Positions 3,568 through 53,838 are shown, counted from the first letter of the whole stretch. The stretch: DNA of 62,105 bases, filler included, from Basidiobolus ranarum (GCA_040143965.1; 15 parts of 15 records of this genome joined end to end with filler, not necessarily neighbours in it); one strand, 5' to 3'. The notes: generated by a model not told the origin, from the letters alone. A program made the numbers and translations.

Positions 3568-3908
3568 TATTGAAATCAACATAGCCTAAATATTAAGCTA
3601 TATATTACTATATGGCTTAATATTTAATTATTCCATATTTCCCAAAGATATTACTTACTATTCTCAAGTAGTATTTACTTAGAATATTCTTACCCCCAAG
3701 TTCTCAGATATATAGATTCTTCAAACTTGTCCTAGAATCCCAAACTTTGCACACATGTTTCTGGGACATTCCTTAACACATTCTACACATTTGTTTGTCT
3801 ACCTCTATACAAAACTATAAATGTCAACATTCTACTCAATAAATCAATAAGTGAAAACCACCAATTCTTTTAGTTCTTCAAACCACTTCCAACAAACTCC
3901 CAAGATAC
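3568..3908 (+). mobile_element. Copia family A LTR (degenerate, last few bases missing)
   Basis: Aligns by eye along its length to the complete LTR at 21325-21672 (e.g. aagttctcagatatatagattct, aaaactataaatgtcaac, gtgaaaaccaccaattc). Confidence 0.85.
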
Positions 3909-3957
3909 TGTTGAAGTATTTTCAGAATTGTTGCATGATGTAGGATCTGGCAATAAT

Positions 3958-4068: not shown

Positions 4069-4168
4069 NNNNNNNNNNNNNNNNNNNNNNNNNNNNNNNN
4101 NNNNNNNNNNNNTTAATTAATTAANNNNNNNNNNNNNNNNNNNNNNNNNNNNNNNNNNNNNNNNNNNN
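4069..4168. other. Artificial contig spacer (44N-TTAATTAATTAA-44N). Identical spacers at 8234-8333, 12392-12491, 16546-16645, 20698-20797, 24849-24948, 28994-29093, 33138-33237, 37281-37380, 41423-41522, 45563-45662, 49702-49801, 53839-53938, 57974-58073
   Basis: Identical 100-nt N-flanked linker with stops in all frames; contig lengths decrease monotonically. Confidence 0.99.
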
Positions 4169-4472: not shown

Positions 4473-4821
4473 TGTTAAAGTACTTGGGAGCCTGTTGGAA
4501 GTGGTTTGGAGAACTAGAGGAATTGGTGGTTTTCACTTATTGATTTATTGACTAGAAAGTTGACATTTATAGATTTGTCAAGATGTAAACAAACTAACAT
4601 GTAGAATGTGTTAAGGAAAGTCCCAGGAGCATGTGAGCAAAGTTTGGGGCTTCTAGCACAAGTGTGAAAAATCTATATATCTGAGAACTTGTAAGTTGGT
4701 AAAAAATATTCTAAGTAAATATCAAATGAGAATAATTGATAATATCTTAGGGAGTTATAAGATAACCAAGTACTAAGTTATATATGACTATATAGGTGCT
4801 TAGGCAATGCTAATTTCAACA
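4473..4821 (-). mobile_element. Copia family A 5' LTR (349 bp, TGTTGAAATT...TTTAACA)
   Basis: TG...CA termini, matches 21325-21672, followed by PBS and gag. Confidence 0.9.
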
Positions 4822-6853: not shown

Positions 6854-8233
6854 TTACTGCTGGGAAGTCGGAGGCATCGATGGTGGGGCTGTGGAGTGAA
6901 TAAACACCGGTTGTGATGGAAAAGGTGGCGTCGATCCACTAGCTACTGTGTAGTAATTTTGCGTTGGTATCGTTGTAGTCATCATATCTGAGCCTAAGGA
7001 GCTAGAGATACCAGAAGATGGATACCCAGTTGTATCTCCTTCACTGAATGAATGGGATTGGATCACTGGGGGTTCAAGCATATTGGAGGAGGCTTGCATT
7101 TGCTGCATCTGTAGGTTGTTTACGCCAAAAGGACCAGAGCCAATATCAATTCCACCAATGGCGGGAGGTAACAATCCCTCTCTCCCGATTGATTCGTGAG
7201 GTGGGTGGCTCTGCATCGAATTCATTTCTTCAGGCTTGAGGGTATCAAAAAATGAAGGCTCAGAAGGATACTTCATATCGTGTGGTATGTTAAAGTCATC
7301 TTGACGAAAGAAGGGCTGACTGTTGTAATATGGCATTTCATTCCCATTCGCGTAACTTGGTGAGTATAAATGGGCTGATCTGGAAATTTCGTGACTTTTG
7401 ATGTGTTTCCGAAGAGAGCGCGAATGATAGTATGCTTTTCCGCACCCTGGAACTGGACATATATAGGGCCGCACATTCGAGTGTGTTTTGACATGCGTCG
7501 ATAATGAATCAGGCCTAGAAAACTTTTTTCCGCAGTCTAAGAAGTATGTGATCAGTATATGAAAGAGCGAACAGCGATATTCGCTTCAATGCATTGCTTT
7601 TACCTGGAATTGGGCATTGAAATGGTCGCTCTCCAGTATGTGTTCTCATATGATTGTACATTTTGTGACGTTTTGTAAACGGCTTCTGGTTACGGGGGCA
7701 TTCTCGCCATTCACAGGTGTAGGAAGCCTTAATGATCATACAGAATTGTTTAGCACACAACATCGTTATTCGTCGATATGTATATTACTTACCTTTCCAC
7801 TTCCAATATGCTCCTGGCCAATGTGTGCTATTAAAACCTCTAAAACAACGAATGTTTTGTCGCATCCTTTCCAAAGACAGTCAAACTGTTCTTGGCTATT
7901 CGAATCATCCTTCATATCTGGTGAATCGGAGGGGGATTTCTTGGTTTTAGCAAGCTCATTCTCGACAAATTTCAATTTCTCGATCAACTCTTCACGAGTT
8001 AGGGTATCTAAAGATTTTTGGTTTTCCTTCAGTTTTTGAGTTTCCTCAGGTAAACTGCTTCTTCTGAGCCCAGTATCCCCATTGTGGGACTCTATAGACC
8101 TCGGGGACTCTTGCTCGTTAGGGAAAACATTCTGTGTTGTGTTATTAAACTGTCTTTTGGTTCCTTTGAACGCTGCGGAATGGTCAAATAGTTTATGCGA
8201 CCTTGATTCACTTTCCTCTTCATGCTTTAGGTG
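6854..8233 (-). CDS. Gli/Zic-like C2H2 zinc-finger transcription factor (4 fingers); 5' end truncated at contig edge
   Basis: Removing introns 7728-7792 and 7537-7603 gives FDCLWKGCDKTF..HIGQEH, YTCEWRECPRNQKPFTKRHKMYNHMRTHTGERPFQCPIPDCGKKFSRPDSLSTHVKTHSNVRPYICPVPGCGKAYYHSRSLRKHIKSH, then a low-complexity tail. Confidence 0.9.
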
Positions 8234-9876
8234 NNNNNNNNNNNNNNNNNNNNNNNNNNNNNNNNNNNNNNNNNNNNTTAATTAATTAANNNNNNNNNNN
8301 NNNNNNNNNNNNNNNNNNNNNNNNNNNNNNNNNCCATATATCTGACAGGTAGTCCTAAATTGGACAAGTGCTTAACCATGATGTAGTCATGATTGAAGCT
8401 GAAAATGATCTTGGCTGTGTAGAGCATCTATATCTCAACAAATAGTTTGTTTATTATGTCAGTTTACATTATTTTACATGAACTAAAAACCAGAGTAGGA
8501 AACAAAATATATAAGTTTTATCAGTTTGAGCTGTGAAATAATGGTTATGAACATGTTACTGACCATTTTACATAAACTCATAAGAAAACCTCAAATGGCC
8601 TGGAGAAGCAGTACACTGCAGAGGGGTACGAATATTTTTAGGGCTGTTCTGTTTACTAGTATTTTTATATGCTGCATCATGTGCGCATCTAAACAAAGCG
8701 TGATTGAAAAATGGGGTATCTATCTTATACTCCTCATATTCCTTGTGACTGGTACTTTTACATTGTATCTTGCAATAACGCCTTCGTGGGGTATGCTGTA
8801 ACGATATGTATGCCGAAAACTTGTAATATTCTTGAATGTGTTCAAGTAACAATATAGTGGTGAAAGTTTTGAGCATTAATGAGGCATTCAATCCCTTATC
8901 TATATGTATTTTTAGCGTAACATGCACACACAGTGATTCAGTATTAAACAGCAAACGATCCATATCCTTGTTAAGAGAATGAAGTTGTATAATAATAGTC
9001 TCATTGATCGGGAAATCGTAGTTCGTATAGATTAACAAACCAGATATCCGCTCATCCATGAAGTTTTTTGAAAGGATAGTAGTAGCTCTTTATTGGTGAG
9101 TGAAAGATTGAAACCGATAATTACTCGAAAAAAGATATGACTATTATTAGACTACTACTTATCGGTCAAGAGACAAGCTCATTTTGGATGTATGCATTCA
9201 GGTGTATGCATTATCAATTTATTCTTACATGTTATCTCACTTTTCAACAGTGGTATGCCCCCTTGGTAGTGCGGATATATTTAAGGTGATATTGGCGTAC
9301 AAACTGATAGCCATAGTCTATCTCCAGAACTATATACAGAATTCCTGAACATAGAAATTGATCTTCCTGTTCACATCGGGCGTTATAGGATTGATGTAGA
9401 TGTAGTCGACTATTCAGCTGATATAAATTCTAAAAACAAATTCAGTTTGTTAAGTTACTTTATCCATGCAAAGTCATTCAAATCCTAACCATATATGGAA
9501 TCTAACACTAACCAATAGCCGTGAGAAGATCTAAATATAGAGAAACACATATTAATAGATTCTGAACGGTGTGAGTATGAGAGTGAGAAGAAACACGACT
9601 AAAAAAAATGATCTACGAGTTGCAAGTAGTACTTTTCGTGGGATGAATGATGAAAGATGTATTGACAATGATGTCAGAGCATCCCTAACCCTGACTTTAC
9701 AACTAATGCGCATCCCTTCTACCATTAAACCAATCTCCGAGTAAATCTGAAAACTACGTCACCGAGATAATATCTAAAGTCCGCTCCATTCATTTCATCA
9801 CAAATGCAGCATTTCAATCGATTAGTAATACACATAAATATTTATTTGAGGTCGCTTAATAATATAGATATAAAAT

Positions 9877-10968
9877 CTATATACAAGTCTCTTCACCACA
9901 GCTATTATCAGAAGGATTAGGGTCACGATAAAATGGTGCACTATTTAAGCAACCAGCGAGATTGACCAACTTCCAGCCGCGCCCTTGAAGATATTCGATA
10001 GCACGCTGAGCAAGAGGTATGGTAGCGGGATAACTTCCAGGTCTAAAGTCAGCAGTTGTGTTCCACACATCATGATCCAAAGAGATAAATTTTCCTACTT
10101 TAGGGTCTGTAGAGCCAGTTTGACTTACATATTCTTGGAACATTTCATCGAGCTTATTCTTTGGATTCCAATCTACGGGATCTACATTCCAAGTGACCAC
10201 GGTATACCCCATACGTTTGAGAACTGACAATGAAGGCTTATCCGTATCACCATAAGGTGGTCTCATACAAGTGGGAACTTTTCCGAGAATTTTAGCCAGT
10301 GCATGATTTAACCGAGTCATTTCATAAACAATCTCTTCCTCATCGACGGTAATCAAGTCTGTATGAGCCCAAGTGTGAGAACAAATCTGATGACCGGAGT
10401 TATAAGCTCTTTGGACAACATCTGATAGCTGATAAATGCTAAGTATTGGGTTCTTGGTATCAGCATTCTTTTGGTTCAAACCGTTGACAAAGAATGTCAC
10501 TTTCACTTGCTTTTTGTCCAAGTAATCCAATAATCCCGAAGTAAGAACACTTGGTCCATCATCAAAGGTCACCGCGAATGTTCCTGGTACGGAACAACCA
10601 GTTACAACTGTGGCTTGAGTTTTATCATCACAACCACCAAAACTTTTCTGACAACCGGTACCACAATGATCTGAGGTATAACCACAAAAGCCCCATTTAC
10701 TACAGCATAATCCTGATCCACAAGTACCAATTTTGGCCCCACAAGCTTCGTCTAAATATTTGAAAGTGGTAACGATAGGACTGGTGGAAGGTTTGGATGA
10801 TTTGGAGGTACTGGAAGCTACCTTAGTGGACACAGTGCTGAGATGGACGGTTTTAGTGGAAATGATTGACCTTGAAGTAGTTAACGTCTGAGTACCACTG
10901 TACTGAGGTGCCCCACTAACAGATGAAGCAGTTAGTCCAAGGAGTAGTAAATGAATCACTGAATTCAT
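9877..10968 (-). CDS. Secreted chitin/polysaccharide deacetylase (CE4) with S/T-rich linker and CBM18 chitin-binding domain
   Basis: Intronless 363-aa ORF: signal peptide, CCSKWGFCG hevein motif, NodB motifs TFDDGP, HTWAH, RPPYG, DPVDW, LDHD. Confidence 0.95.
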   Translation of the reverse strand: MNSVIHLLLLGLTASSVSGAPQYSGTQTLTTSRSIISTKTVHLSTVSTKVASSTSKSSKPSTSPIVTTFKYLDEACGAKIGTCGSGLCCSKWGFCGYTSDHCGTGCQKSFGGCDDKTQATVVTGCSVPGTFAVTFDDGPSVLTSGLLDYLDKKQVKVTFFVNGLNQKNADTKNPILSIYQLSDVVQRAYNSGHQICSHTWAHTDLITVDEEEIVYEMTRLNHALAKILGKVPTCMRPPYGDTDKPSLSVLKRMGYTVVTWNVDPVDWNPKNKLDEMFQEYVSQTGSTDPKVGKFISLDHDVWNTTADFRPGSYPATIPLAQRAIEYLQGRGWKLVNLAGCLNSAPFYRDPNPSDNSCGEETCI

Positions 10969-12491
10969 GATGAACTTGGAAATATAAAAGAAACGTATGG
11001 TTAGTTTAACGGAGAGACTCGATTTATATAGAGAAGGAGAGGGATGGATTTACTTTAAGCGACCTGTATTGAGCTTTATCCTATGACTAAGTTACAAATT
11101 ATTATGCAACAAGGCAAAGCAATACTTGTATACACTTTTCACCATTGACATCTACTCAATATCTATTGGGGAAGGGAAGAATTTTGATTAGTGTGACAGT
11201 GATACTGCATGCAAATACCGCCAAATGTAAAAGCGACCATTTCAGCTCGTTACATTGTAGCTTATACAAGATAACACCACATCTCAAATAGTGTTCAACA
11301 TCGTAAGCATCAAAGCATTTCTACCATAAATGGCCGGATTGGTAAAGAAATATCACTGGCTAGTCTATAAATATAAAAGTCAACATCAATTATCCCTTTC
11401 CAAATATAGTAGCATGAACTTCGATAGGTTCCTTTGGTTAGCTATCATTTTCCTATTCAGTTGACTAAGTTAGGGAACAATCGTCTAGACAATGAAACTG
11501 GTTCGGGTGGGACGATTTAGTAAAGATTTCTTGCCATGAGGAGCATTGGGTTGATAAGGTCTGGCGAGGATATTTCCATAAACAAATAGGGAGTGAAATT
11601 GGCTATGCAATATCATCGGGATTGTATTGTAACTCAACGTGTGCAATGGAACTAGTATAACTTGCTTAGCTAAATTTAGTTAATAGCTATTCTTATATGC
11701 TAGTTAACCAAACAAATACTGTAGTAGAACGTTACCGTCTATTTTTATTGGTAATTCTCGAAAGACTTACTGGAATGAGTTCGCACGCTATGCATATAAT
11801 GTTCATAGTGTGTTGCATTGCTATGATGGTTCGAATCTCGGCAGAGATGGAATTTCGCATTTTGGCCTTGGTGGAATTATCTCATAAGAATTGTGGTTTT
11901 ATGAGCATATATACTGTTAGGAAATAAATCAACATTTGCCGGTGCTTTTTATGCAATACTCTAGTTCTAGGTAGATAAAAGGACCATAGTATGACCACTG
12001 TTAAAATGAGATGTCTTTGATTGGACACTTCTACTGAATTAGAGTAACATAGATAACATATTTTATTTTCTGATCATACTCCTCTACTTTAACCATTCCA
12101 TTTGTCTTTTGTAGTTGCATTCAATTGGAAACAAAGTGCTCCTACCTGGTCTATTTTCAATATATTTTATATACATTTGGCAGTAATTTGAAGAGATATG
12201 TTATTTTTTTTTGCTCAAGTGAATGATAACAAGAATTTATTCATCTATTGGAATAAAGAAAATCAATAACAGTGATATAGTGTTAGGGTATAAGGATGTC
12301 AGAGAAAAGCTGAAATCTTGACTTCAATATTCGTTAAATATGGATTAATTATATTAAACATGATGTGTGAATATTTAAGTATAATATTCAGNNNNNNNNN
12401 NNNNNNNNNNNNNNNNNNNNNNNNNNNNNNNNNNNTTAATTAATTAANNNNNNNNNNNNNNNNNNNNNNNNNNNNNNNNNNNNNNNNNNNN

Positions 12492-12683
12492 AAATAGAGA
12501 AATTGGTGGTTTTCACTTTTTCATTTTTTGAGTTGAAAGTTGACATTTATAGTTTTGTCAAGATGTAAGAGAGCTGATGTTTAGAATGTGCTTAGGAAGG
12601 TCCCAGAAACATGTGTGCTAAGTTTGGAGCTTCTAGCACAAGCTTGAAAAATCTGTATATCTGAGAACTTCTAAGTAAATTCC
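12492..12683 (-). mobile_element. Copia family A LTR fragment
   Basis: Matches 4515-4720 (gaaattggtggttttcactt...ctgagaactt); truncated against the Fanzor remnant. Confidence 0.85.
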
Positions 12684-12689
12684 CAAAAC

Positions 12690-13343
12690 AAGTCTGCTTT
12701 TTGATACACAAGAAGCCAGCAAGCAATATAACCACAAGCAAGATATTTGTGGAAGCTTTGAAGATCTACATTCTGAACAAGAATTAATTACCAGTTTGAA
12801 GAAGAAATTTGGGGACGATGTTGATGTTGTATTAGGTGACTGGTCATATGCGAGTGTGAAATTTGCTGAGCCAATTAGAGGGAAAGGAATGCAACATATA
12901 CTATGAAAAGCAAAGTTCTGTTGTTGAATGAGTTCAACACTTGAGGTTTTTGCCCCAAACGTGAACTCTCAGAATTGGAAAAATTCAAAACTATTCCAAA
13001 CCCAAGAGTTTTTAGAAGAAACAAGATGGCGACTGTAGAATGTCATGATCCTTTAAGGTGCTGTCCAAAATACAAAAAGAGAGAGATAAAAATGAAAGCT
13101 AATATATTTTCATCAAATAGGTGCACAAACCGAAATTGTTTTGAGACCACGCTAGCCAGTAGCATTAGATGACTTAGGAACCGAGACCTTGCTGCAGTGC
13201 TCAATTTCCGGCATATCTTAACTTCACCTAGAGAAAAAGCTACCCGTCCTGACCGATTTAAGCCCCAAAAGCAAGGTGAAAGAAAAGGCAAGCAAAAGGA
13301 AAGCCAAGAATCAAACACTCTTCCTCCTCAGTTATCGCTGTAG
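12690..13343 (+). pseudogene. Degenerate Fanzor1 (eukaryotic TnpB-family RNA-guided nuclease), C-terminal half
   Basis: Reconstructed: SEQELITSLKKKFGDDVDVVLGDWSYASVKFAEPIRGKGMQHIL*KA / frameshift / KVLLLNEFNT*GFCPKR..LEKFKTIPNPRVFRRNKMATVECHDPLR^CTNRNC...R*LRNRDLAAVLNFRHIL...RPDRF + basic tail, stop at 13341-13343. The GDWS, (D)E, CxxC..CxxxxC and NRD motif order is that of fungal Fanzor1. Confidence 0.85.
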
Positions 13344-13439
13344 GACACCCATAGTATAGATAAGATTTTCTATTGATCGTTTAGAAATCATCCCGGTTAT
13401 GTCCACAAAAAACTGAGACGTCTAGTTTTACTGGGACGG
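13344..13439 (+). ncRNA. Candidate Fanzor omegaRNA scaffold / element right end
   Basis: Directly after the Fanzor stop: hairpin 13364-13389, and stem 13391-13397/13430-13436 enclosing hairpin 13409-13429. Function is inferred from position. Confidence 0.45.
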
Positions 13440-16400
13440 CCAAAGTAGAATGAGAAAGCTTGTTTGAGTACAGGAAACCATCTTCTAATAAATACAGCAC
13501 TATGTGGCTCAATAAATGAGAACAAGCCTCTTTTATAACATATACTATTTAACATGACAACTCTTAGTCTCTCTCATTCAAATTGGTAATTGGGTCATTG
13601 CATATTGTATCTCCCCAAGAAACAAAGTTGTGTATTTAAACATTTGCAAGTTGGTGTTGATTCTTCGAGCAACCACGAGGTATATGTCTGGATAAAAGGC
13701 ATATAAAGAGTAAGAGTGGAGTTTACACTCAACACTTCAATATGTAGCAATAGTTTAAAAGTTTAACATATCTTCATATTGACACTACTTCATGGACTCA
13801 TTTATAACTCATAACTCTCTTCATGTTCAAGATCCATAAAGATGCGACTTTGGGAGTACTTTTATTTCCATATCTCTTGCACAAATCTCGCAAAAATTCA
13901 TTGAAGTATCGTGACTATATATTCCCTAAAGATTTACAGCATTGAACACTGAGCACTTTCATTACGAACTTATATTTAGAAACTAATTGTCACTTATAGG
14001 AGATAGCAAATATGTCGCTGAAGCCGTACACAACTGTCGGCTATCAAAAGTAAAGTATATTCCGTCTTTCAAATATCTGCACGTCTATCTTTCTTCCTTC
14101 TCTGAGAGTTAATAGCCGAAGGGAGGGGGTAGCTTCACATTTATGTGAACTCTTTCGAATCAGTCAAGTTCTACTATCTGAGCAGCATTATATTCAAACT
14201 AGGCACATAAAGATCATAGATCAGATCTTGCAAGGCCATCAAGTAGAGATAATAGTAATTGAAACATCGAGCTGTGTGAGTTTGACGAGAGCTTCAATTA
14301 CTATTATGACAATATTCCTAATATGTTGTACCTAAGCTACAGCTCGGCTCTGACTAATTCCTCGGCCTACTATCCAGCTGCTCCTGATTACCACTACACT
14401 ACTACAGCATTGGAAATAAAGGACTATACCAGGCATGCTCCAGGGCATTCTATATGTTTACAACGGGAATATAGTATGTGTTTCGCTAAAAGTGCTCTGT
14501 CATCAGTGCTGCCAGACTATCCATAATTGAAATTAACCGGGTGATGTTATCATAAACTGCTAGATTACCCATCAAGACTTATCTACTACTAAGTGAAAGT
14601 ATATTTAGCCCAGTAATAAAAATAACTCGAAGTGGGTAACGAGTAGACTATTCTTACTTGCCAGTTGAGAGCCAATCACCAATTTGCTTTTGTTAGATTT
14701 AGTGTCATACCTTCGTGTGGACCATAACGGTTGTCATAGCAAATTGTGGAATCTTTGTAACATCCAATGTTTTCTCCGTCGACTCGGAAATGGATTCTTT
14801 ACGGTTATGCAAGTGCATAGAGTAACTCAACATATGATTCATACATAGTCTCGGTTACCTTGCACGCACCGTTCAATCCCGAGTGAAACTAATCTCAAGG
14901 TTAGTACGAAAAAACTTGACTGTGGAGCACAATGGATGTCTATGCTAGAAGCATACTCAGGAAGTACTCTGAAGCCAATGAGGTAGATGTGAAAGTATTA
15001 AAACTAATTAGACTGTTGGTTGTATCACTGCCTCTTCGACGGGGATTTGATTACTTCAACAGTGCGATCTGCATGTACATGCTAGAGACTATATATATTT
15101 AAGCTAGACATATCTTACGTCAAGTAGACAAAATTGCTTATCAAACCTGCCGATTGCTCGTAGGGATGGTGCGATTATTCTTATGCGTGGCTTGATACAG
15201 TCTGCATTTTCCAGCAGAGTTGTTGAACATAACCCACCAAGTCTGGTGATTTCGAGCAGTGACATCAGGGTCATTCATATAGTTGTGACCTCAGGTGATG
15301 CACAGCCATCAACACGTATAACACAATCCAGATCAAGGTCGAATAGCGATGATTTTCGTCATGCTAATAAGATGATTTAATTCATGGAATTCATTTACTG
15401 GCCCCCTGCACGAAACCAATGCCTGCTAAGTCACACGTTGACATTCCTGTGTTCCCAAGTCCAAGCCAGTTGCTAGATGTTGATCGTTGCAGCGTTGTAA
15501 TTCTTTGCATGTACCATTGGGTAGCTATCCAGTCCTGTAATCCAAATGGAAATTAACTATGCGTGATGGATATCCATGGCCTTTTATCGATCACCTGCTG
15601 ATCATTTTTGGCACCAAGCCTAATGCGAGTTACCTATCTTGATTTCTGGTAAAGTACCGAGGGGTTTTCACCGATCCGAAGGATACCAACACTCTTGAAC
15701 AGATATTGTGGAACTAATCTGCAGTATAAACTCGAGGGTTATCTTCAAACCGGGATCTATTTCCTAAAACCCACTTGAACTCGATTTCTATGATCTATTT
15801 TTACGTAATGTAGGTCGAGTGGCAAAAATTGGAATTCCTTGGGGGAGATAATTGCTCAGTTGTTTTGACTTCTGCTCAACTGCACATACCCCAAGCAATT
15901 CCATCATACTGTTTGTAGCCAAGTGTCTAGGCCAATCTGTTATCCGTCTGGTAGGGTAATTTCTCTGATACACAGAGTGGTGATGAAGGGTTAAGTAGTT
16001 CAAACCTGTAAATAATGATACAAAGTGACCTGTGTCCGTACTACATGACTTATTCAGTTCGCTTAAGTAAATTCAAGATGTTTCCTAACTTAAATATAAT
16101 ATGATTACCTAACGATTTCATATTGATTGGGTTCTATTTATGTTTCGAAATCCCAACAGTGCTGCAATTAGCAACTTTATCATTGAAATCTTACCTATGT
16201 GTTCAACAGATAAGCCACAGGAGACAGATAAACAACTCGAACATATAGCAACAGTACCCATTTGCTCCAACAAAGCACTAACCGTTCTACGTTCACACGG
16301 TGAAATGGCATAGTCTAAGAATTCCTGTGGAATAACGCTGATTGATATAGCGTCTCTAAGCATGGGTAGGAAGCCAGGTTCTGTATATTGAACAATTGAA

Positions 16401-16645
16401 TGTTTCTAACGTTCTAGACATATCGGATTATTTTAATGGTCGTGGGAATATAGATACATGGTGCATGTGTGATTCATGTGTGACCCATACAAAGCTGTAA
16501 CAGAGGCTAAACACCAAGACCATCCTCATTCATAACTGGAGTGTANNNNNNNNNNNNNNNNNNNNNNNNNNNNNNNNNNNNNNNNNNNNTTAATTAATTA
16601 ANNNNNNNNNNNNNNNNNNNNNNNNNNNNNNNNNNNNNNNNNNNN

Positions 16646-20797: not shown

Positions 20798-21324
20798 TGG
20801 ATCTATGCTTAAAATACACATATTCAGGATCAAACTTTGATCTGATGGGATATTCAGATGCAAATTGGGGAAGAGATATTGAAGACAGGAGATCTACAAC
20901 AGGATACTTATTTCTTTGCTATAATGGAGCTATTTCTTGGAATTCAAAGAAACAACCTACTGTAGCACTTTCAACAACAGAAGCTGAATATATGGCTACT
21001 TGTGAAGCAACAAAAGAAGCAATATGGTTAAGAAAACTGCTAACAGACTTGGCTAATTCTCAAAGTTCACCAACTACAATAATTCAAGATAATCACAGTT
21101 GTATCAAATTAGCTAAAAATCCCACGTTTCATATTAGAAGCAAACATATAGATATTAAGCATCACTTCATTAGAGAGACTATAGAGAATCAGTTTATTGA
21201 CTTAACTTATTGTTCTACAGAAGACATGATTGCTGATATATTAACCAAACCATTAGCTAGACAGATATTTGAGAAATTTAGACCTTTATTATGGTTAGTT
21301 TATATGATTATTTAGTTGAGAGAG
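20798..21324 (+). mobile_element. Copia family A RNase H (pol 3' end) and PPT
   Basis: GYSDANWG..DRRSTTGY..WNSKKQPTVALSTTEAEYMA..QDN..RSKHIDIKHHFIRE..ADILTKPL; PPT agttgagagag. Confidence 0.95.
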
Positions 21325-21672
21325 TGTTGAAGTTAGCATTGCCTAAACATCTATATAGTCATATATAGCTTAGTACTTAGTTATCTTGAAATTCACTAAG
21401 ATATTATCCATTATTCTCATGAGGAATTTACTTGGAATATTCTTACCAACTTAGAAGTTCTCAGATATATAGATTCTTGCAAACTTGTGCTAGAAGCCCC
21501 AAACTTTGCACACATCTTCCTGGGACTTTCCTTAACATATTCTACATGTTAATTTGTTTACATCTTGAGAAAACTATAAATGTCAACTTTTACTCAATAA
21601 ATCAACAAGTGAAAACCACCAATTCCTGTAATTCTCCAAACCACTTCCAACAGGCTCCCAAATACTTTAACA
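21325..21672 (+). mobile_element. Copia family A 3' LTR (348 bp)
   Basis: TGTTGAAG...CTTTAACA directly after the PPT; at least 8 full or partial copies in the window. Confidence 0.92.
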
Positions 21673-21850: not shown

Positions 21851-23310
21851 AAGGGATCAGTTAGTTTTATTTATACTTTTTTATAACAAAATCAATTAGT
21901 CAGCTGAAGCTTTATAACCATTGAAATTTTAACAAGAAATTGCAGGATATCAAATATTCACTAGAAACTATTTTCTTATTTCCATTTCTATCTAAACTTT
22001 CAAAAGGATGTTGAGGTTGTCTAGCATTGCCATTCTGAATTGGAATATTCTTTATGATAGCTTCTGGAACAAATGAAGATACTTCAGCTCAGCAGACCGT
22101 CATCTAATAATTAATAAGGTCTAACACTAGAGCTAGTACTTCGTCGTGTACAGAGAAATAGAAACTTGTATGCAACCTTTAAGATGGGCTTTATAGCCAC
22201 TGTGGTTTGCTGAGTCTATAGAGTACTACATGTTACAACACGTGTGTAGAATCGAGTATTATGTCATACATACTTTCACCTGTGCTCAACATTACAATAG
22301 AGTTGACGGAACTTAGTGCCGTTTGCTGTAGGCAATGATTCCAAATACTGTTATACTGACAGGAAATACGTTTTATAGAAAGCAAGCATTAAGCACTAGA
22401 CTTGTTCAGAACGAGGTAACTTACCAGTCGGAAACCCTACATGACCTGAATTGGAAGTGTGCAACTATTAATTGATATGTTACCGAATTTCAATTGAATC
22501 ATAAACCTAAACTTGTTTCACCGATGGCTCTTGGCAAGTCGGATTTGGTCCGTGATAGAATAAATATTGGCCATGAAATCATTTGTACATGATTGAATCA
22601 TGTAATTTCGCCTAGTATCACCAACATTTGCATTTGGAAATTTGCGTCGAAATCTATGCAGGTTCTGCTATTGAATCCATCAGTATCATGCATCGCCATA
22701 CAAACAGTCAGGGAGACGGGTCAATTCCATTGGTGCAGAAACGTTTTCGTCTTTTTGAGCGACAACGCCATGCTTGCGTGGACTCTTCACTCTAGAGCTG
22801 ATACTAGCTTTGGTACTGCGCAAGCGACTGCACCTGGTGGCAGAGCGCATAGCATATGTTTAGCTTCGACTTTGGGCTTCTACAGAGCCTATATCCTGAT
22901 TTATTGGTAACTTACTTGGATACATTACGCACGCGACACATCCAGCCTTGTGAGTGATACGAATGAGAAACAAGACGGTTGATTTGATGGATCCCTGATG
23001 TGCTTCTAATATATCGATCCATTATCAAGCGATGTGATTAATTGATTCCATTTGATTGCCAACCTCCGAAGTTGACATGCATCCACTGATATTCTCGAAG
23101 ATCTGTTTCTTTTTCATCTTACCTTAGGAATGTTGGTTTTGGGCACGTATGAGCTCAATTTGTACATACCTTACTGATTGGATCAACGGATCCCTCAAGA
23201 CAGCCAATAACTATTTTAAGACTTGGAGGTGATGGTCAATAAATACAGCCGGAATTTCCCTTTGAGATGGGTTTACAATACCCTTTGCTTTTCTCGTCGA
23301 CTCGGAGTAT

Positions 23311-24684
23311 ATGGGGGATGTAAAATCCTCGATCGTTTGTGTTGTAGTGGCAGTTTGGTCCTTACAGTCGCTGGTTACCTCAGCTATATACTGGCGTCGG
23401 CGAGATAAAGACTGTATAAAATACCGATCGCCAGGGTTTACTGTTGTAGCTGCGTTAACTGCCTGTATCCTGGTTTGCGTAAACGTACTTCCGTGGGCGG
23501 ACGATGATTTAATTCCATGCTTCGTTCGACTCTGGATTACTAGTTTAGCTTATCCAGTAATGTACCTATCGGCTACTGCTCGAGCGCTTCGATTGCTATG
23601 TTTCTATCGTATAAGTGAGGCCAAACTTGCCACTCAGAATTCTCAACCTGCTTCGCATTCCCCTACAACCACCTTAACACATACTTCTAAAAAGCCTTCA
23701 AGTCAAATCTCAGTCATTGAGCTGAGTGACATCAACCTCCCTTCCGAGTCCCCTATTCCGCTTTACCATGAATCTTTAGCTAACAATTGGTATTACCGGA
23801 ATCGTCGCTTGTTTTCGGTAGCCTTCTATGCTCAGATATGCTGTGCTATTGTATTTATTCACATTGTAGTTTTAACCATTATTCAGTGCAATACAACAAG
23901 CTTCTCTATTCATCCAGTTATGGTGAGAAGCAATTGCTCCGTAGGCTGGGAATGGCTTCCCCATCGGCTATACATAGTTGTCTATGCAATCGTCGTTAAT
24001 CCGTTTATATTGCTCAGGCTGCGAGGGATTCATGATGCTTATGGAATACGAGAGGAGTTGATGGTTTTAACCATCACTAACAGTGTGTTCGATTTAGTTT
24101 TCTTGATTTTATTTGCACTTAATGCATTTGGTGGTATAGATCCTGACTTCTATGGGTTACTGTTCGTAGTTGTGCCCATCTCCCTGATCCACTGCTTTCT
24201 GATCATTCGGCCTCTTTGCGAGTCCTACGGGATCCATTTCTCCCGGTTCGGGATTAAGCGCAACTCTATCTATAAGGTACTGAAGTTTACACCTGAATGT
24301 TTCGAAAAAATCCTGAAGGACCCCTTACTATTGGAGCAGTTCAAATCATTTGCTGCGAAAGACTTCACCGTTGAAAATGTTCTCTTTTATGAGAGATGTC
24401 AAGCAATATCGCAAAATGAAGTAGACCCAGCCAAGTTAGAATTTGAGCTTCGTGAGACATATACCACGTTTATTGAGCCTAACGCCGAACTTCTAGTCAA
24501 CCTGGACTCGAATACAGCATCTAAAATCAAGGCCGACGTTAGTGTTGAAAAATTTTATCCCAGCATGTATGATGAGGCACAAACGGAGATCAAGGATCTG
24601 ATGTTTCGCAATACGTTCCCAAGATTTCTAGAGTACATGACGCACAATAAGTCCCATTGGGTAACTGATTCCTGTATGGCGTAA
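23311..24684 (+). CDS. Seven-transmembrane receptor fused to C-terminal RGS domain (GprK/AtRGS1-like)
   Basis: Intronless 457-aa ORF with about 7 hydrophobic segments, then RGS signature FEKILKDP..FKSFAAKDFTVENVLFY..FIEPNAELLVNL..LMFRNTFPRF. Confidence 0.88.
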   Translation: MGDVKSSIVCVVVAVWSLQSLVTSAIYWRRRDKDCIKYRSPGFTVVAALTACILVCVNVLPWADDDLIPCFVRLWITSLAYPVMYLSATARALRLLCFYRISEAKLATQNSQPASHSPTTTLTHTSKKPSSQISVIELSDINLPSESPIPLYHESLANNWYYRNRRLFSVAFYAQICCAIVFIHIVVLTIIQCNTTSFSIHPVMVRSNCSVGWEWLPHRLYIVVYAIVVNPFILLRLRGIHDAYGIREELMVLTITNSVFDLVFLILFALNAFGGIDPDFYGLLFVVVPISLIHCFLIIRPLCESYGIHFSRFGIKRNSIYKVLKFTPECFEKILKDPLLLEQFKSFAAKDFTVENVLFYERCQAISQNEVDPAKLEFELRETYTTFIEPNAELLVNLDSNTASKIKADVSVEKFYPSMYDEAQTEIKDLMFRNTFPRFLEYMTHNKSHWVTDSCMA

Positions 24685-26060: not shown

Positions 26061-27203
26061 ATGTCGTCCAACAATAGACCTCTATTCAAAATACAGCTCG
26101 AGAAAACCACTTACTATAAATCCTTAGAGGAGTCCACAGGCATCGTTGTTCGTGGAAGTCTTCTTTTTACCCCCACCTTCCCTATCAAGGTCAATCGAAT
26201 CTTACTTCGCTTCCAAGGAAAATACGTCGCCACATCGACAAAGGGTAGGCTCTAATTTAAACAAATATTCCTTTCCCACCACTTATTTACATTATTTGCA
26301 GATATCCGTAAATCTGGAAATGTGTTAGTAGAAAATCAGTGGATATTCTTTGATGCTGGAAAAAAAAGTCAAACCATGGAAGGATGTTCATTCAAGTACG
26401 ACTTTGAAATGACTCTTCATGAGGAGCTTCCCGAATCATGCATGTTAGAGTATGGAAGCGTTCAATACAAATTCAAAGCTATAGCAGAAACATCCATTCT
26501 GTATTCGAACCTCAAAGATGAAAAGGAGATATTCTTACGACAAAATGTCAACTCTTGGCTTGATACTGTCTATCCAACTGAGATCGATCGTAACTGGCGT
26601 AACATTTTAAATATAAATATGAAAATCCCATCGAATCAGTACAAATTGGGTAGTGTTCTACCTTTAACCTTTCGAACACAACTATCCGACGAGACTGCCC
26701 GTGTCGTTTTAGTATCGTGCATGCTGAAAGAGCATATGATTTTTCGTTCGCCTAAAATCCACGGGAGTTCGCGTCCGGTAATTCGTGACCAAGCCAACAA
26801 TATAGACATGGCGTTTACCTGGTGTAAAAATATTGGTTACAACGAGGAGAAAGTGATGGAGATTAACATTCCTTTCAAACGGTGTAGCTTTGATTGCTCC
26901 AATGAGTATGTGAATATTTCTCACAAATTACATGTGAGAGTTGATATCCAGAAGCAGGGAGTTGTTGAGTCCATAGGCATTTCGTTCCCTATACTCATTG
27001 TCCCTCAAATCTCCTCAGAATTGCGTTTTGATGAATTAGGAATCGAACAGCTTCCTGGATATCAAGTAATTCCTCCCCCTCCATCTTACGACTATGTTTA
27101 CAGTCTCGAGAATCTCAGCGCTATCAGTTTGGATTCTAATGAGAATTATACCCCCTTTCCACCTAGATATTCCACTATTGGACATAACATCTCTGTATAT
27201 TAA
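26061..27203 (+). CDS. Alpha-arrestin (ART/ARRDC-type ubiquitin-ligase adaptor)
   Basis: Exons 26061-26244 and 26302-27203 join in frame; arrestin-N motifs (VVRGSL, ILLRFQGK, YDFEMTL..LPES..GSVQYKFKA) and C-terminal PY motifs LPGY, PPSY, PPRY. Confidence 0.88.
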
Positions 27204-29659: not shown

Positions 29660-32529
29660 TGTACTATATCAGCCAAGAATCTGCCCTGAGTAAGCCAAGC
29701 AGCAACTCAAGGACTAAACTACATGTTCAGCAAGGCTGGATGCACTATTACAATTCAGAATAATAACAAATTATTTACAAGAATACAAACTCAAAACTTA
29801 TACAAGTCAAAAAAGAACAAATTGCATTCAGAACATGCAAACTTGGCTAAAACTGATGAAATTTGCTATCAAGTATGGCATTGAGGATTAGGCAACATTG
29901 AGGAACAAAAGCTGACCTAAATGATCTAAAATCAGCTTGTTGAAGGCTTTGAAATTGAAAATATCACTAAATTGGATCTTTGTGAAGGTTGAATATATGG
30001 AAATCATCACAGAAGCAATTTTCACACTCTGGAGAGATTGAATTCCCACACAAGCTTACCACAATTTATTCTGGCCTTCATGCGCAAATGAAAAACATCT
30101 CACTAGGTGGGAAAAGGTACAGTATGACCTTTATTGATGACAAAACAAGATGTACCTGGGTATTCTTTCTCAAATCTAAATCTGAAGCCTTAACTCCATT
30201 CATGACATACAGAGCAATGGTAGAGAAAGAATCAGCACAAAGAATAAGGGTATCATGGAGTGATAATTGTGGAAAGTTCTGCTCTAAAGACTTTATTAGT
30301 TTCTGACTTAAACATGTAATTAAGCAACAAACTACTTAACCTTATACTCCACATCAAAATGGAGTGCAGAATATGCCAATAGGACCATGGTGGACATGGC
30401 TAGATCAATGTTGAATGATTAAAACTTGGATTACCAATATTGAGCTGAATCTGTCTCCACTGCAGGCTTTATCAAAGCAGATGCCTAACAAGATTGCTAC
30501 AAAATTCTACTCCATTTGAAGCCCTATATGGATCAAAACTAAGTATTTATCATCTCAGGATCATTGATTAAGCAACTTATTGCCTAATTTCAGTTCAATA
30601 TACTCTAAATTGGAGCCCAAAAGCAAAAAATGCATCTTTTTTGGTTACTGTGATGGATCAAAGGCCTACAGACTGTTTGATAACAAAAAACAGAAGTTAA
30701 TCAAGTACAGAGAAGTGATTTTTGATGAAGCAGCATATTTTTCACCGCAAATCACCTTTCTTGATCCAGAAAACACAATTAGCACTATGCAGGAAGTGAC
30801 TGCCCCAATTCCATTGGTGTCTGAGCTCTATAGACCCAAAATTACAGACCCAATTACCTAAGAGGATGATTTAGGGTGCAGAAGATCTTCCAGAAGGAGA
30901 AATCAGCCAGGGAAGTAGTGATACACTTCCAATGATGATGTATACACTTATGCAACTTTCTGTAACAGCCACAGACTCTAGATTATGCCCTAGAGTGTAC
31001 AGCAACAAAGTATGGGAAAAGGCAATGTCTGAAGAGTTTTCTTCACTTCAGGACAATAAAACAATGGTTTGAAGTCCGTGACCATGAGGAACAAAGGAAA
31101 TCCAGTGCAAATAGATCTAAAAAGTCAGAAACCAAGCTGATGGAACCATAGAAACGTACAAAGCAAGATTATTTGCAAAAGGTTATTCTCAGACTCTAGG
31201 TGTTATTTATGGTGTAAAATTTGCTCCAGTAGCTGATTGTAGCCCCAATAGATCAATCCTGGCACTCTCAACCATTCATAACCTTGTTATACGTCAAATG
31301 AATATCCAAACAGCCTTTGTGTATGGATAAGGTCAGGGTCAGGTAGCTAAAATTAGCACCATTAGATCAATCCTGCCACTCTCAGCCATACATGACCTTG
31401 ATTTACATCAGATGGATACAAAAGAAGCCTTTCTGCTTGGAAATCTAGAAGAAGAGATATTTATGGAGCAACCAGATGGATCTGTGGACCCAAAACACCC
31501 TGATAGGGTTGGTAAACTGCACAATTGCTACATGGACTCAAGCAAGCACCCAGGGTATGGTACAAACAGACAGATACCTATTTGGTATCACTAGGGTTAC
31601 AAAAATGCCTCACAGATCACAGTGGTTACATCAAAATAACCGGATATGCAATCCACTTCACAGCATTATATGTGGATGCTTTGAATATAGTCATCAATGA
31701 TATAGAAGCACTTAATCAGACAAAAAGCAGCTTATCAAACCAATTTCAGATGACTGTTTTAACATTAATGGAACCAAATCTGATATTAATTAAAATATTA
31801 TCCACTTTGGCCCAAAATGACTCAAATCAAAGCCAGGTGTTCCCTTAGCAATCCATGGTGGGCAGCTTATTGTAAACAATGGTTGAAAAACATCCAGACA
31901 TTGCTGTGGCAGTGGGAACTGTCAGCCAATATCTCAAAAATCCAGGATCTGAACAAAAAACAGTAGTAAACAAATATCCATGTATGTGAGAGCAACAGTA
32001 GATCTAGTTCTGGAATGCTCAGCCACTCCTGATGCACAAAATTTTGAAGGCTAGACTAATGCAGCCTGGGGAAGAAACCATGATGATAGAAGATCAACAA
32101 CTGGGTACATTTCTCTCTCTGGTAATGGATCTATAACTTGGAATAGTAAGAAGTAACCAAATGTTCCATTTTCAATTACAGAAGCAGAGTATATGCCTGC
32201 CTCTGCTACTACACAAGAAGCTATGTGGTTAAGGAAGCTATTTACAGACCTAGGATACATGCAAGATGTGCTATTACTATATTTTAAAATACTCAAAGTT
32301 ATATTTCCTTAGCTAAAAACACAACATTTCATGTTAGAACAAAACATATAGATAATAGGCTTCATTTTGTTAGAGAGGCAATAGAGAATGTTACAATTGA
32401 ACTTGTCTGTTGCCCTGCTGAAGAAATGATTGCTGACATCTTAACCAAACCTTTAGCTAAAGCACAATTTGAAACATTAAGATATAAGTTAGGGTTATGA
32501 GAAATACAAAATAATTAGTTGAGTTGAAA
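29660..32529 (+). mobile_element. Decayed Copia family B pol (protease-integrase-RT-RNase H)
   Basis: YSMTFIDDKTRCTWVFFLKSKSE, PYTPHQNG, KLEPKSKKCIFFGY, YKARLFAKG, MDTKEAFLLG, ALYVD, DRRSTTGY, ADILTKPL; heavily interrupted. Confidence 0.92.
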
Positions 32530-35842: not shown

Positions 35843-37280
35843 AACTCTGATGCAAAAATAGAAAGGTACAAGGCTAGACTAGTAGCCATAGGCTAATTCC
35901 AAACACCAGGAATGGATTATACAGAAACTTTTGCTCCAGCAGCAAAGTTGAATTCAACTAGATTGATTTTGAAATTTCAGCTAAATATCAGTTTAGTAAA
36001 TATCCAATGGATGTTAAAACTGCTTTTTTAAAATGTGAGTTTGCTGAGGAGATCTATATGGACCAGCCAGATGGATTTGTGGATCCAGGAAACCCTCCAA
36101 AAGTTTACAAACTCTGGAACACACTCTATGGCTTATAACAATTTCCAAGAGCTTGGAATTGCAGGTTAGATGCTTTTTTGAAAACACTCAAATTTCAAAA
36201 GAGTTATGCTTACTATAGTATCTATTTCAGGCCAGATAAGACAAACCCAGCTTTATTAGCCTTATATGTAGATGACCTTATTATAGCCACCAATGACTTG
36301 AAGACTTTTGAGAAAAATCAAATCCAGCTTATCTACCAAATTCAAAATGACTGAACTTGGTAAACTCATGTACTATCTGGAAATCCAAATTAAGATTGAT
36401 AGAACTACCAAAACATTAACTTTATACAGTTCAAGTACATCCTAGATGAATTAAACAAGTTTAAAATGGAAGAATATAATCCTGTATCTACTGTAATCAA
36501 GACAAATCTTAACTTGACCAAAAATGGCTTAAATCAGATAATTTGGATGCAAAAATGGAAGCAAGATGTTTCCTTATCAATATACAGTTGGTAGTTTAAT
36601 GTATATCATGGTTGGAAAATAGCCAAATATTGCATATTCTGTGGGTGTTATCTGTCATTATATTCAAAATTATGGATCTGATCAAATCATAGCAGTTGAA
36701 TGAATTTTCAGATATTTGAAAGGTACAGTGGATTTGTGCTTAAAATACACATATTCCAGATTAAACTTTGATCTGATGGGATATTCAGATGCAAATTGGG
36801 GATGAGATATTGAAGAGAGGAGAGCTACAATAGTATACTTATTTCTTCACTGTAATGGAGCTATTTCTTTGAACTCAAAGAAATAACCTAGTGTTGCACT
36901 TTAAACAACTGAAGTTGAATACATGGCTGCCTGTGAAGCAACAAAAGAAGCAACATGGTTAAGAGAGCTTGGAACAGGTTAAGGTTTTTCACAAAATTCC
37001 CTAACTGCAACATTTTAAGATAATCAAAGTTGTAACAATTTAGCTAAAAATCCTATGTTTCATAATAGAAGCAAACATACAGATATCAATATATTATCCA
37101 TTATTCTTGATTGGTATTAACTTAGAATTTCTTCACCAACTTCAAAGTTCTCAGATATATAAATTTTTCAAACTTATGCTAGAAGCCCTCAACTTTGCAT
37201 ACATGTTCCTGGGACCTTTTTTAACACATTCCACATGTGAGTTTGTTTTTGTCTTGACAAAACTATAAATGTCAACTTTC
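35843..37280 (+). mobile_element. Decayed Copia family A RT-RNase H and partial LTR (about 37089-37280)
   Basis: ERYKARLVA, MDVKTAFL, ALYVDDLII, GYSDANWG; closely matches 20798-21150. Confidence 0.9.
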
Positions 37281-37380: not shown

Positions 37381-38338
37381 AGCCAATATCTCAAAAATCC
37401 AGAATCTGAGCACTAAACTGCAGTAAAGCAAATATTCAGGTATTTGAGAGGAATTGTAGATCTAGTTCTGGAGCACTCTGCCAATCCTGATGCATGAAAT
37501 TTTGATGGCTTCAGTGATGCACACTGTGGAAGAAACCTTGATGATCAAAGTTCAACAACTGGGTACACTTTCTATATGGGAAATGAGCCATGACTTGGAA
37601 TAGTAAGAAGCAACCAACTCTAGCACTTTTGCTACAGAAGCAGAGTTTATGGCTGCCACTGCTACTACGCAAGAAGCTATGTGGTTAAGGAAGTTACTTA
37701 CAGACCTGGGATACATGCAAAAACATGCTATTAGTGTATTTGAAGATAAGTAAAGTTGTATTTCATTAACCAAATCCCTATAATTCATGCTAGAACAAAG
37801 CATATAGATATTAGGCATCACTCAGTTAGAGAAGAAATAGAGAATGCTACAATTGAACTCATCTAGGGCCCTAATGAAGAATTAATTGCTAACATCTTAA
37901 CCAAGCCTTTGACTAAAGCAAAATTTGAATTATGAAGATATAAGCTAGGTTTATGCAAAATATAAAATAATTAGTTGTGTTGCAATGCTGAAATTAAGTA
38001 ATTAGCAACTCCTTACTCAGTAGTTGATTTATTCATATTCATTATGATTATTAATATTCAATTCTGCCATTCAAGAGCATGTGTTTATTGCTCTAATTGA
38101 TTGAAGTATCAATCAGATCACTCTTACCAATTTTGACTATTTTCCAAACTACCTCAAATCATCTCAAATTTTTACCCATGCTTAACAGGCATGTTTGTTA
38201 TGATCTAAGCATCCTCAATAGTTTTATTTCATACAAAACTATCAATAGGACATATTCAATTTAATAGAACATAAGTCTTTAATTCACAAATCCAAATCTT
38301 GTCCAAAACACCTCCAAATGCCCTAAACACTTTTAGCA
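37381..38338 (+). mobile_element. Copia family B RNase H and 3' LTR (37986-38338)
   Basis: Homologous to 31920-32880 and 55480-56430. Confidence 0.88.
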
Positions 38339-41522: not shown

Positions 41523-41674
41523 CTGGGATTTTTTTAACACATTCTACATTAGTCTGCTTATATCTTGATAAAACTAAATATGCCAATTTTCTACTCAATA
41601 AATCCATAAGTGAAAACCAAAAATATCTCTAATTCTCCAAACCACTTCCAACCACCTCCCATAATACTTCAACA
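41523..41674 (+). mobile_element. Copia family A LTR 3' half
   Basis: Ends ...ataatacttcaaca; matches 21520-21672. Confidence 0.85.
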
Positions 41675-43182
41675 AAGTACTATAATTTATGTACATTTAG
41701 CAAAAGCTACTCGTTATACAAAACCTAGGCATTACAATAGGTATTTACAATTTTGTTCTTAAGAATTATTTTGTGTAAAACCTAACTGCTACCTAGTGAT
41801 AGAAGGAAGAATAATTAAAATAGATTTCTCTAAGTGCTTGAATTTGTGAAAGGGTTTTAGATACAAATAAAAAATCTCAATAAATAATTATTTCTTTATA
41901 AATGAAGAAACAAATATCACAGGATACTTTGCAGGATGACATTTGGGAAATTGTGGACTTCTATGTAATTTTGTCTTTTCTATGTACTCCAGGTTAAACT
42001 AATTTCTGATTCAATTACAACATATACAAGAATGACATATAGTCTATATTTGATGTGTAAAAGATTTGGGTTCAGCACTCTAAACTATCAATAATTATGA
42101 GCAAGCACACAATTGAAGCTAGATTCAGGTTTGCTACTTTATGGCCATTGGAATCATCCCTTTTTTTGCATGTGCCAAGTGAAATAAATGGCAAATCTAA
42201 AATAAATTATTGAATGCTACCAATCTGTTCATATTTTTTGTAGTTGTCATCAGTATGCCATTCTAATATACAAGATTCAATTTCGGCTCAATTCCTAAAA
42301 AGTAATAGAATAATGTATCGTGAGTAGAAAAGTAAATATTGCAAGCTTGCTACTCGATGAATAACAATGTGAATGAAGATGTCTGTGATATGGATGCACT
42401 TAATTCATTTGATAATACAATTTCAGTTTATCCCCATCTCAAATAGTTAAAACCACGTATGTGTATAGCTACCATGTAATCAAAGAAAAAGATTTCTACT
42501 TTCTCAATTGGATTTATTCTCTTCGATATTCAAAGCAACATATGAGGAGTCTTATAGGAAAATTCTTACTCCAGGTATATGCTGCTACCAATAAGCTACA
42601 AGACGCTACTTGTGCTCACTTCGCTTTAGATTACTCACTGATATATTCTAATTTAGTCATGCAATAAGTCAACAAAATAGGAAATTCCTCCACGTAACGC
42701 TTATAATCATAATAAGAGCTACAGTTCATCGGTGGGAAAAATTGGTGTCTCATGGCGATCGTGACTCCGCTTCACATAGCTCCGATGAGATCCAGTAACA
42801 TTGAATTCATAATATGGGTGGGGATTCATCACTTATTTTATACTAGCTTTTACCCAATTGACGGATGGGTTTAATGTGCTTTACAGACACTTTTTTAGCT
42901 CACGTCCCAGGGAATTAGTTTAGTGCTCTATCGCCACATAAACAGATTAATCTATTCATATCAGGAGCATATAATAGAAGAACAGTGTCAAATTGAGTTC
43001 AAATCGGGGATTTTCATCGATGCAGAATACCAACAACCAATGTTCCAGTTACTGGACGTACGCGGACGTCTATAGGACTCAGGCAATTACCAATCAAAGC
43101 AGTATTTCTATATTATATATTAATGCTAATATCGATAACACTGCAAGTAATGCTAATATCAAGATACTGTATATAATGATCA

Positions 43183-48687: not shown

Positions 48688-49037
48688 TGTTGAAGTATTT
48701 TGGGAGTTTGTTGGAAGTGGTTTGGAGAACTAGAAGAATTGATGGTTTTCACTTGTTGATTTATTGAATTGAAAGTAGACATTTACAGTTTGTCAAGAAG
48801 TAAACAAATAAACGTGTAGAATATGTTAAGGAAGGTCCCAGGAATAAGTGTGCAAATTTGGGGCTTCTAAGACAAGTTATCAAAATCGGTATATCTTAAG
48901 AGCTTCCAAGTTGGTGTCAATATTCTAAGTAAATTCCTCCTGAGAATAGTGAGTGATATCTTATGGAAATACGGAATAACTAAATACTTAGTTATATATG
49001 ACTATATATAGATGTTTAGGCTATGTTAATTTCAACA
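48688..49037 (-). mobile_element. Copia family A solo LTR (350 bp)
   Basis: TGTTGAA termini at both ends, full-length match to 21325-21672; no clear TSD. Confidence 0.9.
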
Positions 49038-49600
49038 ACAACCCCCAATATTCTTACAGTTGGCAACATATTTCCATTATTATTTGTCTTCATTAGTAGG
49101 AAAAGTACTACCAAAATCAGAAAAAATACAAGCTATCCCCATGATTTTCAATTCATTTTAAATCTTGAGTGTTAATGACTTGACCTAAAATGTCACTCAT
49201 GATAGGTATAACAGGCATCTATCAGTCTCTTGACTAATTGGTTTTGTAACATACAGATTGGATATGCTCGAAATGAGAAATCCAAATTAGATTCAGCCTG
49301 TTGCTTGAATGTTTCAATAAATTTCCGATAAAATTGATGGATCTAGGGAAGAAGGGATATATAGCTTGATTAAATAATCTAAACTAAGATATTCTTAAAC
49401 GCTGAAAAAAAAAATCGAAAAAAATGGGCCACAATAATATCCCCTATGAATTCCTGACTTTCTATTAATCAACGATACTTGGTAGCAGAGTCTTTCGCCT
49501 ACGCTCTTGCTGGTAAGGCATGCTGTATAAAATTAACTAGAAAAAAGTTCGGCAACTAAATGATTTGACCCCAGTAGATCTTTCGATTCATATCCCAATA

Positions 49601-53730: not shown

Positions 53731-53838
53731 TGTTAAAGTATTTGGGAGCCTGTTGGAAGTGGTTTGGAGAATTAGAGGAATTGGTGGTTTTCACTTATTG
53801 ATTTATTGAGTAGAAAGTTGACATTTATAGTTTTGTCA
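53731..53838 (-). mobile_element. Copia family A LTR 3' end
   Basis: Near-identical to 4473-4580. Confidence 0.9.

Follow-up and report, generated by a model that had tools for sequence, protein, structure and literature searches.

The plus-strand segment 12685-13343 of the Basidiobolus ranarum DNA analysed here is very probably what is left of a Fanzor1 gene that no longer functions, comprising roughly its last quarter. Fanzor1 proteins are eukaryotic, transposon-borne, omega-RNA-guided RuvC endonucleases and descendants of TnpB. The relic descends from a gene of the type represented by PpFz1, the Fanzor1 of Parasitella parasitica, and is not a functional member of the family: RuvC-I, the open reading frame, and an intact zinc ribbon have all been lost.

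The window, which is the whole stretch of 62,105 bases that was analysed, consists of 15 pieces of 4032 to 4068 bp each, sorted by falling length and separated by 14 identical 100-bp linkers; each linker is composed of 44 Ns, a 12-nt six-frame stop motif, and a further 44 Ns.

4069-4168, 8234-8333, 12392-12491, and 11 more: linkers, artificial joins.

Pieces that lie beside each other in the window are not genomic neighbours, and since unplaced contigs have been chained artificially to form the window, findings in it need to be read contig by contig. The Fanzor1 remnant sits in the piece 12492-16545, and the linker at 12392-12491 means that the DNA to the left of 12392 is not physically adjacent to it.

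The remnant was read through in frame 3, with stop codons written as X, and the peptide was searched with phmmer against 1.84 billion representative proteins. This gave 107 matches at an E value of 1e-3 or lower, 14 of them at 1e-10 or lower, and in the long matched proteins the aligned segment always lay near the C terminus. Against all PDB sequences, the same peptide matched only PpFz1 (9cf0; E = 9.6e-13) and, much more weakly, the Spizellomyces punctatus Fanzor1, SpuFz1 (8gkh; E = 1.3e-3). The 75-aa piece from frame 1 likewise matched PpFz1 (E = 1.9e-6) far better than SpuFz1 (E = 0.016), the only further match being one methyltransferase at E = 0.42. A full-length relative of 807 aa, P0036, matches PpFz1 at 1.3e-79. 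We also assembled a family profile of 719 positions from 20 full-length relatives, drawn from the 107 phmmer matches, three further matches, and one cluster member. Compared with the PDB, the profile matched all three solved Fanzor1 proteins: PpFz1 from end to end (3.6e-223), SpuFz1 (6.3e-98), and the Guillardia theta Fz1, GtFz1 (5.5e-28); its sole other match was one unrelated chain at E = 0.7. The initial annotation had called the segment a Fanzor1 remnant and had suggested an HMMER comparison of the repaired peptide. That identity was borne out, with both pieces matching Fanzor1 chains in the PDB and the profile in agreement, and the comparison gave significant matches to Fanzor1 and no better match to any unrelated family. 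As judged by sequence comparison, the remnant belongs to the Fanzor1 family.

Pfam assigned no family to either of the two read-through peptides, and NCBIfam returned two matches far below its cutoffs (E = 0.077 and 0.14), both for the 75-aa piece. Since full-length relatives also score below threshold on PF07282 (5 of 10 in one set and 2 of 4 in another), the missing Pfam family is no argument against Fanzor1. The assignment accordingly relies on comparing the remnant directly with Fanzor1 proteins of solved structure, rather than on a curated domain model. The relatives P0109, P0110, and P0054 carry a precomputed Pfam label, PF26935.1, which the Pfam search did not reproduce; it may be a newer model for the family.

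The same comparisons bear on the proposal that the fragment comes not from a Fanzor1 but from a Fanzor2, from a TnpB of the IS607 type, or from some unrelated protein with a zinc ribbon. Bacterial TnpB (IS200/IS605 and IS607) and Fanzor2 share with the remnant their ancestry, a RuvC domain combined with a zinc ribbon, and the RD motif, and the arrangement [TS][TS]-x-x-C4-...-RD is described as common to Fanzor1, Fanzor2, and TnpB (PMC3627910); the weak scores of the relatives on PF07282, a Cas12f1-like TNB domain, point in the same direction. The PDB matches, however, were confined to Fanzor1 chains: no TnpB, Fanzor2, or Cas12 chain appeared at an E value of 1 or lower with either read-through peptide or with the family profile. 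The Gly/Glu pair typical of Fanzor1 is also present, whereas canonical TnpB keeps the RuvC-II Glu at the position where the remnant has Gly. We therefore give an origin outside Fanzor1 next to no credence and retain the assignment to Fanzor1. The parts of the remnant are listed below; residue counts refer to the 20 full-length relatives.

12685-12906, plus strand, frame +1: first piece of the remnant, the part of RuvC surrounding what used to be the RuvC-II strand, with K-K-K-F-G and V-V-L-G-D-W-S, ending at TGA 12904-12906.
12835-12846, plus strand: GDWS, read directly from the sequence.
12835-12837, plus strand: Gly where canonical TnpB has its RuvC-II Glu, which is characteristic of Fanzors; 19 of 20 relatives also have Gly in this column.
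12904-12906, 12942-12944, and 13170-13172, plus strand: in-frame TGA stops, read directly from the sequence.
12907-12917, plus strand: zone of the frameshift from +1 to +3; relatives have about 7 nt more here.
12909-13057, plus strand, frame +3: second piece of the remnant, with the relocated RuvC-II Glu, a Thr followed by TGA, C-P-K-R (first half of the zinc ribbon), and N-P-R.
12930-12932, plus strand: relocated catalytic Glu (GAG), equivalent to SpuFz1 E541; column invariant in 20 of 20 relatives.
12951-12962, plus strand: C-P-K-R, read directly from the sequence.
12960-12962, plus strand: Arg (CGT) in place of the second zinc-ribbon Cys; Cys in 20 of 20 relatives.
13058-13120, plus strand: intron of 63 nt, GT..AG, phase 2, between L-R and C-T-N-R-N-C.
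13121-13343, plus strand: last exon of the remnant, with C-x4-C at 13122-13139 (second half of the zinc ribbon), N-R-D, a basic tail, and the native TAG stop.
13179-13187, plus strand: N-R-D of RuvC-III; its Asp, 13185-13187, is equivalent to SpuFz1 D606.
13341-13343, plus strand: native stop TAG, read directly from the sequence.

All the positions first proposed for the three TGA codons, the frameshift, GDWS, the Glu at 12930, and NRD proved correct on direct reading.

In Fanzors, the canonical RuvC-II Glu is reported to have given way to Gly or Pro, with an alternative Glu used downstream (PMC10530073). For Fanzor1, G500 and E536 are described as highly conserved, and a motif D-x-[TS][TS]-x-x-C4-x-RD is given for the Fanzor family (PMC3627910). 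In the remnant, Gly at 12835 and Glu at 12930 form the Gly-plus-downstream-Glu combination of Fanzor1 and correspond to the pair reported as G500/E536 in SPu-1-1p (PMC3627910), and N-R-D at 13179-13187 supplies the RD of RuvC-III. When aligned with the SpuFz1 chain 8gkh_P, the Glu falls on chain residue 935 and the Asp on residue 1000, 65 apart; a constant offset of 394 in this chain maps them onto E541 and D606, likewise 65 apart. In SpuFz1, D383, N385, E541, and D606 are reported to coordinate Mg2+ (PMC10432273), and D606 is also named in PMC11423790. The order of motifs recognised at the outset, namely Gly for the RuvC-II Glu, a relocated Glu, a zinc finger, and NRD, thus has the backing of both column conservation and the SpuFz1 alignment.

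PpFz1 (PDB 9cf0-9cf3), the best solved match, presents its features in the same order as the remnant: the G-x-W-S strand, the relocated Glu, T-S, CxxC, and N-P-R-P, followed by C-H-G-L-L-R-C-x4-C, W-N-R-D-x-A-A-V-L-N-F-R, and P-x-x-F. The remnant corresponds only to approximately residues 1109-1254 of the PpFz1 chain, and the FRI insertion specific to PpFz1 maps upstream of the surviving part. PpFz1 is described as an intact, active omega-RNA-guided nuclease (PMC11423790), whereas stops, a frameshift, and a Cys-to-Arg replacement have disrupted the remnant.

When all six frames of the window were searched with the family profile (hmmsearch), frame +1 of 12763-12918 fell on profile positions 530-581 (i-E = 3.3e-13) and frame +3 of 12912-13316 on positions 582-697 of 719 (i-E = 3.6e-28). 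The two pieces abut on the profile at 581/582, which proves the frameshift. From the Leu that ends at 12903 to the Glu at 12930 there are 26 nt, compared with 11 codons in both P0036 and PpFz1, a deficit of 7 nt. The three TGA codons occupy positions of different character: 12904-12906 stands where relatives have Lys or Arg; 12942-12944 replaces what is Ser in 18 of 20 relatives, in second place within the [TS][TS] motif; and at 13170-13172 all three partial B. ranarum homologues (P0002, P0003, and P0127) have Arg.

Conservation was assessed at the 43 columns that are conserved in at least 18 of the 20 relatives. Fifteen of these belong to the lost N-terminal part; the remnant keeps 22 of the remaining 28. 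The six that are not kept comprise a Gly lost at the frameshift (P0036 position 665), the Ser changed to TGA, the Cys changed to Arg, a Gly changed to Asp, and two Leu changed to Pro. The [TS][TS]-x-x-C4 zinc ribbon (TNB domain) is recognisable but broken: Thr is kept and the next residue is TGA, the first Cys pair has become C-x-x-R, and the C-x4-C pair is kept once the intron is removed, so that three of the four Cys remain. Three TGA codons and one frameshift interrupt the coding sequence, and the longest open stretches over the remnant are 75 aa.

Upstream, the loss is complete within the window. Profile positions 1-529 of 719, which include the RuvC-I Asp, have no counterpart anywhere in it by profile search or tblastn, in agreement with the original statement that RuvC-I and the N terminus are missing. 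All 183 tblastn HSPs, from 125 proteins, lie within 12640-13340, and neither tblastn nor the profile located further Fanzor pieces in the 62-kb window, the other profile match being noise (E = 0.73). With RuvC-I and the rest of the upstream part gone, three nonsense codons, a 7-nt deletion, and substitutions in conserved columns, one of them a zinc-binding Cys, the remnant cannot yield a nuclease; the loss of RuvC-I would in practice exclude RNA-guided cleavage.

The survival of 22 of 28 conserved columns and of the native stop might nevertheless suggest that the remnant is still used, whether translated through stop-codon recoding, in the form of a truncated protein with a zinc ribbon, or as a source of a transcribed regulatory or guide RNA. 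Recoding was considered and rejected: the TGA codons replace Lys/Arg, Ser, and Arg, with a frameshift between them, so that no single recoding rule rescues the frame, and they are ordinary nonsense mutations. A truncated protein is opposed by the absence of any ORF above 75 aa, and catalysis is not possible without RuvC-I. Neither Rfam nor folding gave a structure signal for an RNA; there was no Rfam match downstream of the remnant, and the fold of 13200-13560 had a z-score of +0.78, with 79 of 100 shuffled sequences folding at least as well. These searches thus gave no omega-RNA-like signal downstream, on the side where Fanzor1 elements encode this RNA (fRNA), at the 3' end of the gene and towards the right end of the transposon. 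Continued use of any of these kinds appears highly improbable, and a non-functional relic remains the preferred reading. Downstream, none of the five ORFs of 13344-16545 contained a Pfam domain, nor did the two antisense ORFs over the remnant, and 13344-16545 yielded no inverted repeats, other meaningful repeats, or transposase domains. No transposon end could be defined around the remnant, and the left end is lost. SpuFz1 loci, in contrast, are described as intact single-ORF elements with 30-nt inverted repeats, and no such element ends are recognisable here.

The intron was not recognised in the initial annotation, where it appeared as 21 extra residues between LR and CTNRNC. The profile score is 96.9 bits with 13058-13120 included and 118.4 bits without it, and excision restores the family spacing C-H-x-x-L-R-C-x4-C. 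The relative P0004 has a read-through insert at the same site, and the B. ranarum model P0003 contains the last codons of a homologous intron. Acquisition of introns by Fanzor genes has been reported (PMC10530073).

On its left side, the remnant is joined to a fragment of a long terminal repeat (LTR).

12492-12684, minus strand: internal fragment of a Ty1/Copia LTR, approximately LTR positions 110-309 of about 348, cut on the left by the contig end and truncated on the right at the Fanzor remnant.
20800-21672, plus strand: 3' end of a Ty1/Copia element, with a 171-aa open pol C terminus at 20800-21312, TAG at 21313-21315, a GAGAGAG purine tract, and a 348-bp LTR at 21325-21672.
3570-3909, 4473-4821, 48688-49041, 37088-37280, 41523-41682, and 53731-53838: other full or partial copies of the Copia LTR, 77-96% identical.
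36729-37089, 32059-32482, and 37516-37928: related copies of the Copia pol end.

The repeat is about 350 bp long with TG..CA ends and occurs seven more times in the window, in full or in part. For the ORF at 20800-21312, 3039 relatives were obtained at an E value of 1e-3 or lower, and among the 120 matches listed most carry RVT_2 and many also rve and gag. As a full copy of the repeat directly follows this Copia-type pol stop and the purine tract, the repeat is a Copia LTR; Atlas feature matches likewise point to Copia. The initial annotation had described a Copia LTR fragment beside the remnant, and this holds by way of the repeat with TG..CA ends that follows the Copia pol end on another contig, with the caveat that the LTR at the remnant is itself truncated. 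No target-site duplications were seen at three full LTR copies. Several of the other copies lie at contig ends, which suggests that the assembler broke in the repeat.

The fragment is 78-85% identical to the three copies that align with it over 184-186 bp, and 12492-12676 shows 84% identity to the full copy at 21325-21672; a 15-nt exact match carries the LTR homology to approximately 12683. Fanzor homology begins by about 12691, and the leftmost tblastn HSPs start at 12679-12700, barring two (12640 and 12658) that start to the left of the junction. The junction therefore falls at approximately 12684, some 190 bp from the contig end. The remainder of the LTR was not found downstream in the contig, where matches beyond 12683 are 16 nt or shorter, the longest exact one is 11 nt, and E values are 0.09 or higher. 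The junction is thus not a clean insertion site, and insertion of a 5'-truncated Fanzor element into the LTR was rejected on the same ground.

The setting of the junction has to be weighed against the lesions themselves. Both were seen on one short unplaced contig of about 4 kb that begins inside a multi-copy LTR; a gene that is intact in the organism could then have acquired its stops, its frameshift, and its LTR junction as artefacts, through sequencing errors and a chimeric join inside the repeat on a poor contig. This account, however, requires many independent errors, comprising three nonsense codons, a 7-nt deletion, and four substitutions in conserved columns including an invariant Cys. 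Furthermore, the nearest relatives in another assembly (P0002, P0003, and P0127) are also fragmentary, one with a frame change at its end. We consider an assembly artefact very unlikely and genuine decay of the gene the better explanation.

The family assignment, the lesions, the intron, and the LTR junction come directly from the analysis. The ancestral gene coded for a PpFz1-like protein, roughly 600-1000 residues long, and contained at least one short intron. About three quarters of the gene, from its start and with REC, WED, and the RuvC-I Asp, have been lost at the junction with the truncated, reverse-oriented Ty1/Copia LTR. The Gly-bearing strand, the relocated Glu, the zinc ribbon (TNB), and the N-R-D helix of RuvC-III survive, as do the basic tail and the stop codon of the original gene. 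A likely history begins with a Copia element inserting within or close to the Fanzor element; the edge of the LTR and the 5' part of the gene would then have been lost through a deletion or illegitimate recombination, and the rest would have decayed neutrally. The order of these events and the deletion or recombination step are our inference.

The closest proteins to the remnant are partial hypothetical proteins of B. ranarum, P0127, P0002, and P0003, with 81%, 78%, and 69-71% identity, respectively, over the last exon; the next closest come from Mucorales and Kickxellales fungi, at approximately 36-50% identity. The three B. ranarum proteins are gene models of 79, 64, and 191 aa from another assembly, and all fall short of a full-length Fanzor1. 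The frame is shifted at the end of P0127, P0002 has the same six C-terminal residues as the remnant, and P0003 skips the zinc ribbon, passing from the K-R-K-F-G region through intron-derived codons to the last exon. They seem to have been annotated across decayed Fanzor1 copies; that they are fragmentary, with one changing frame at its end, fits a decaying family. A decayed Fanzor1 family accounts for such short hypothetical-protein models in neighbouring assemblies as fragments of the same family. In metagenome contigs, 308 pattern matches were obtained in a search for close relatives, and none was confirmed.

The remnant is a real but ordinary genomic fossil of a family well known in early-diverging fungi. 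Fanzor1 genes and decayed copies have been catalogued in fungal transposons, zygomycetes included, since 2013 (PMC3627910), and RNA-guided nuclease activity of Fanzors was demonstrated in 2023 (PMC10432273, PMC10530073). By itself the remnant matters little; it marks the genome as a one-time host of a PpFz1-like Fanzor1 element and gives reason to look for intact copies across the whole genome. It is possible, if rather doubtful, that a Basidiobolus-type, PpFz1-like, intron-bearing Fanzor1 lineage with intact active copies and omega-RNAs persists elsewhere in the genome or in close relatives. With such copies, the characterised Fanzor1 nucleases would come to include those of a fungal group on which we found no Fanzor report in print: a full-text search retrieved no literature naming Fanzor together with Basidiobolus, and the supplementary locus tables of large surveys may list such loci.

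Other contigs of the chain carry ordinary host-gene fragments.

23266-24681, plus strand: RGS domain and part of a 7tm_3 receptor.
26256-27200, plus strand: Arrestin_C.
44500-45195, plus strand: catalase.
6857-7585, minus strand: C2H2 zinc fingers.

An open frame of 390 aa at 9877-11049 on the minus strand contains Ser/Thr-rich and Cys-rich stretches and, by eye, resembles a secreted carbohydrate-active enzyme.
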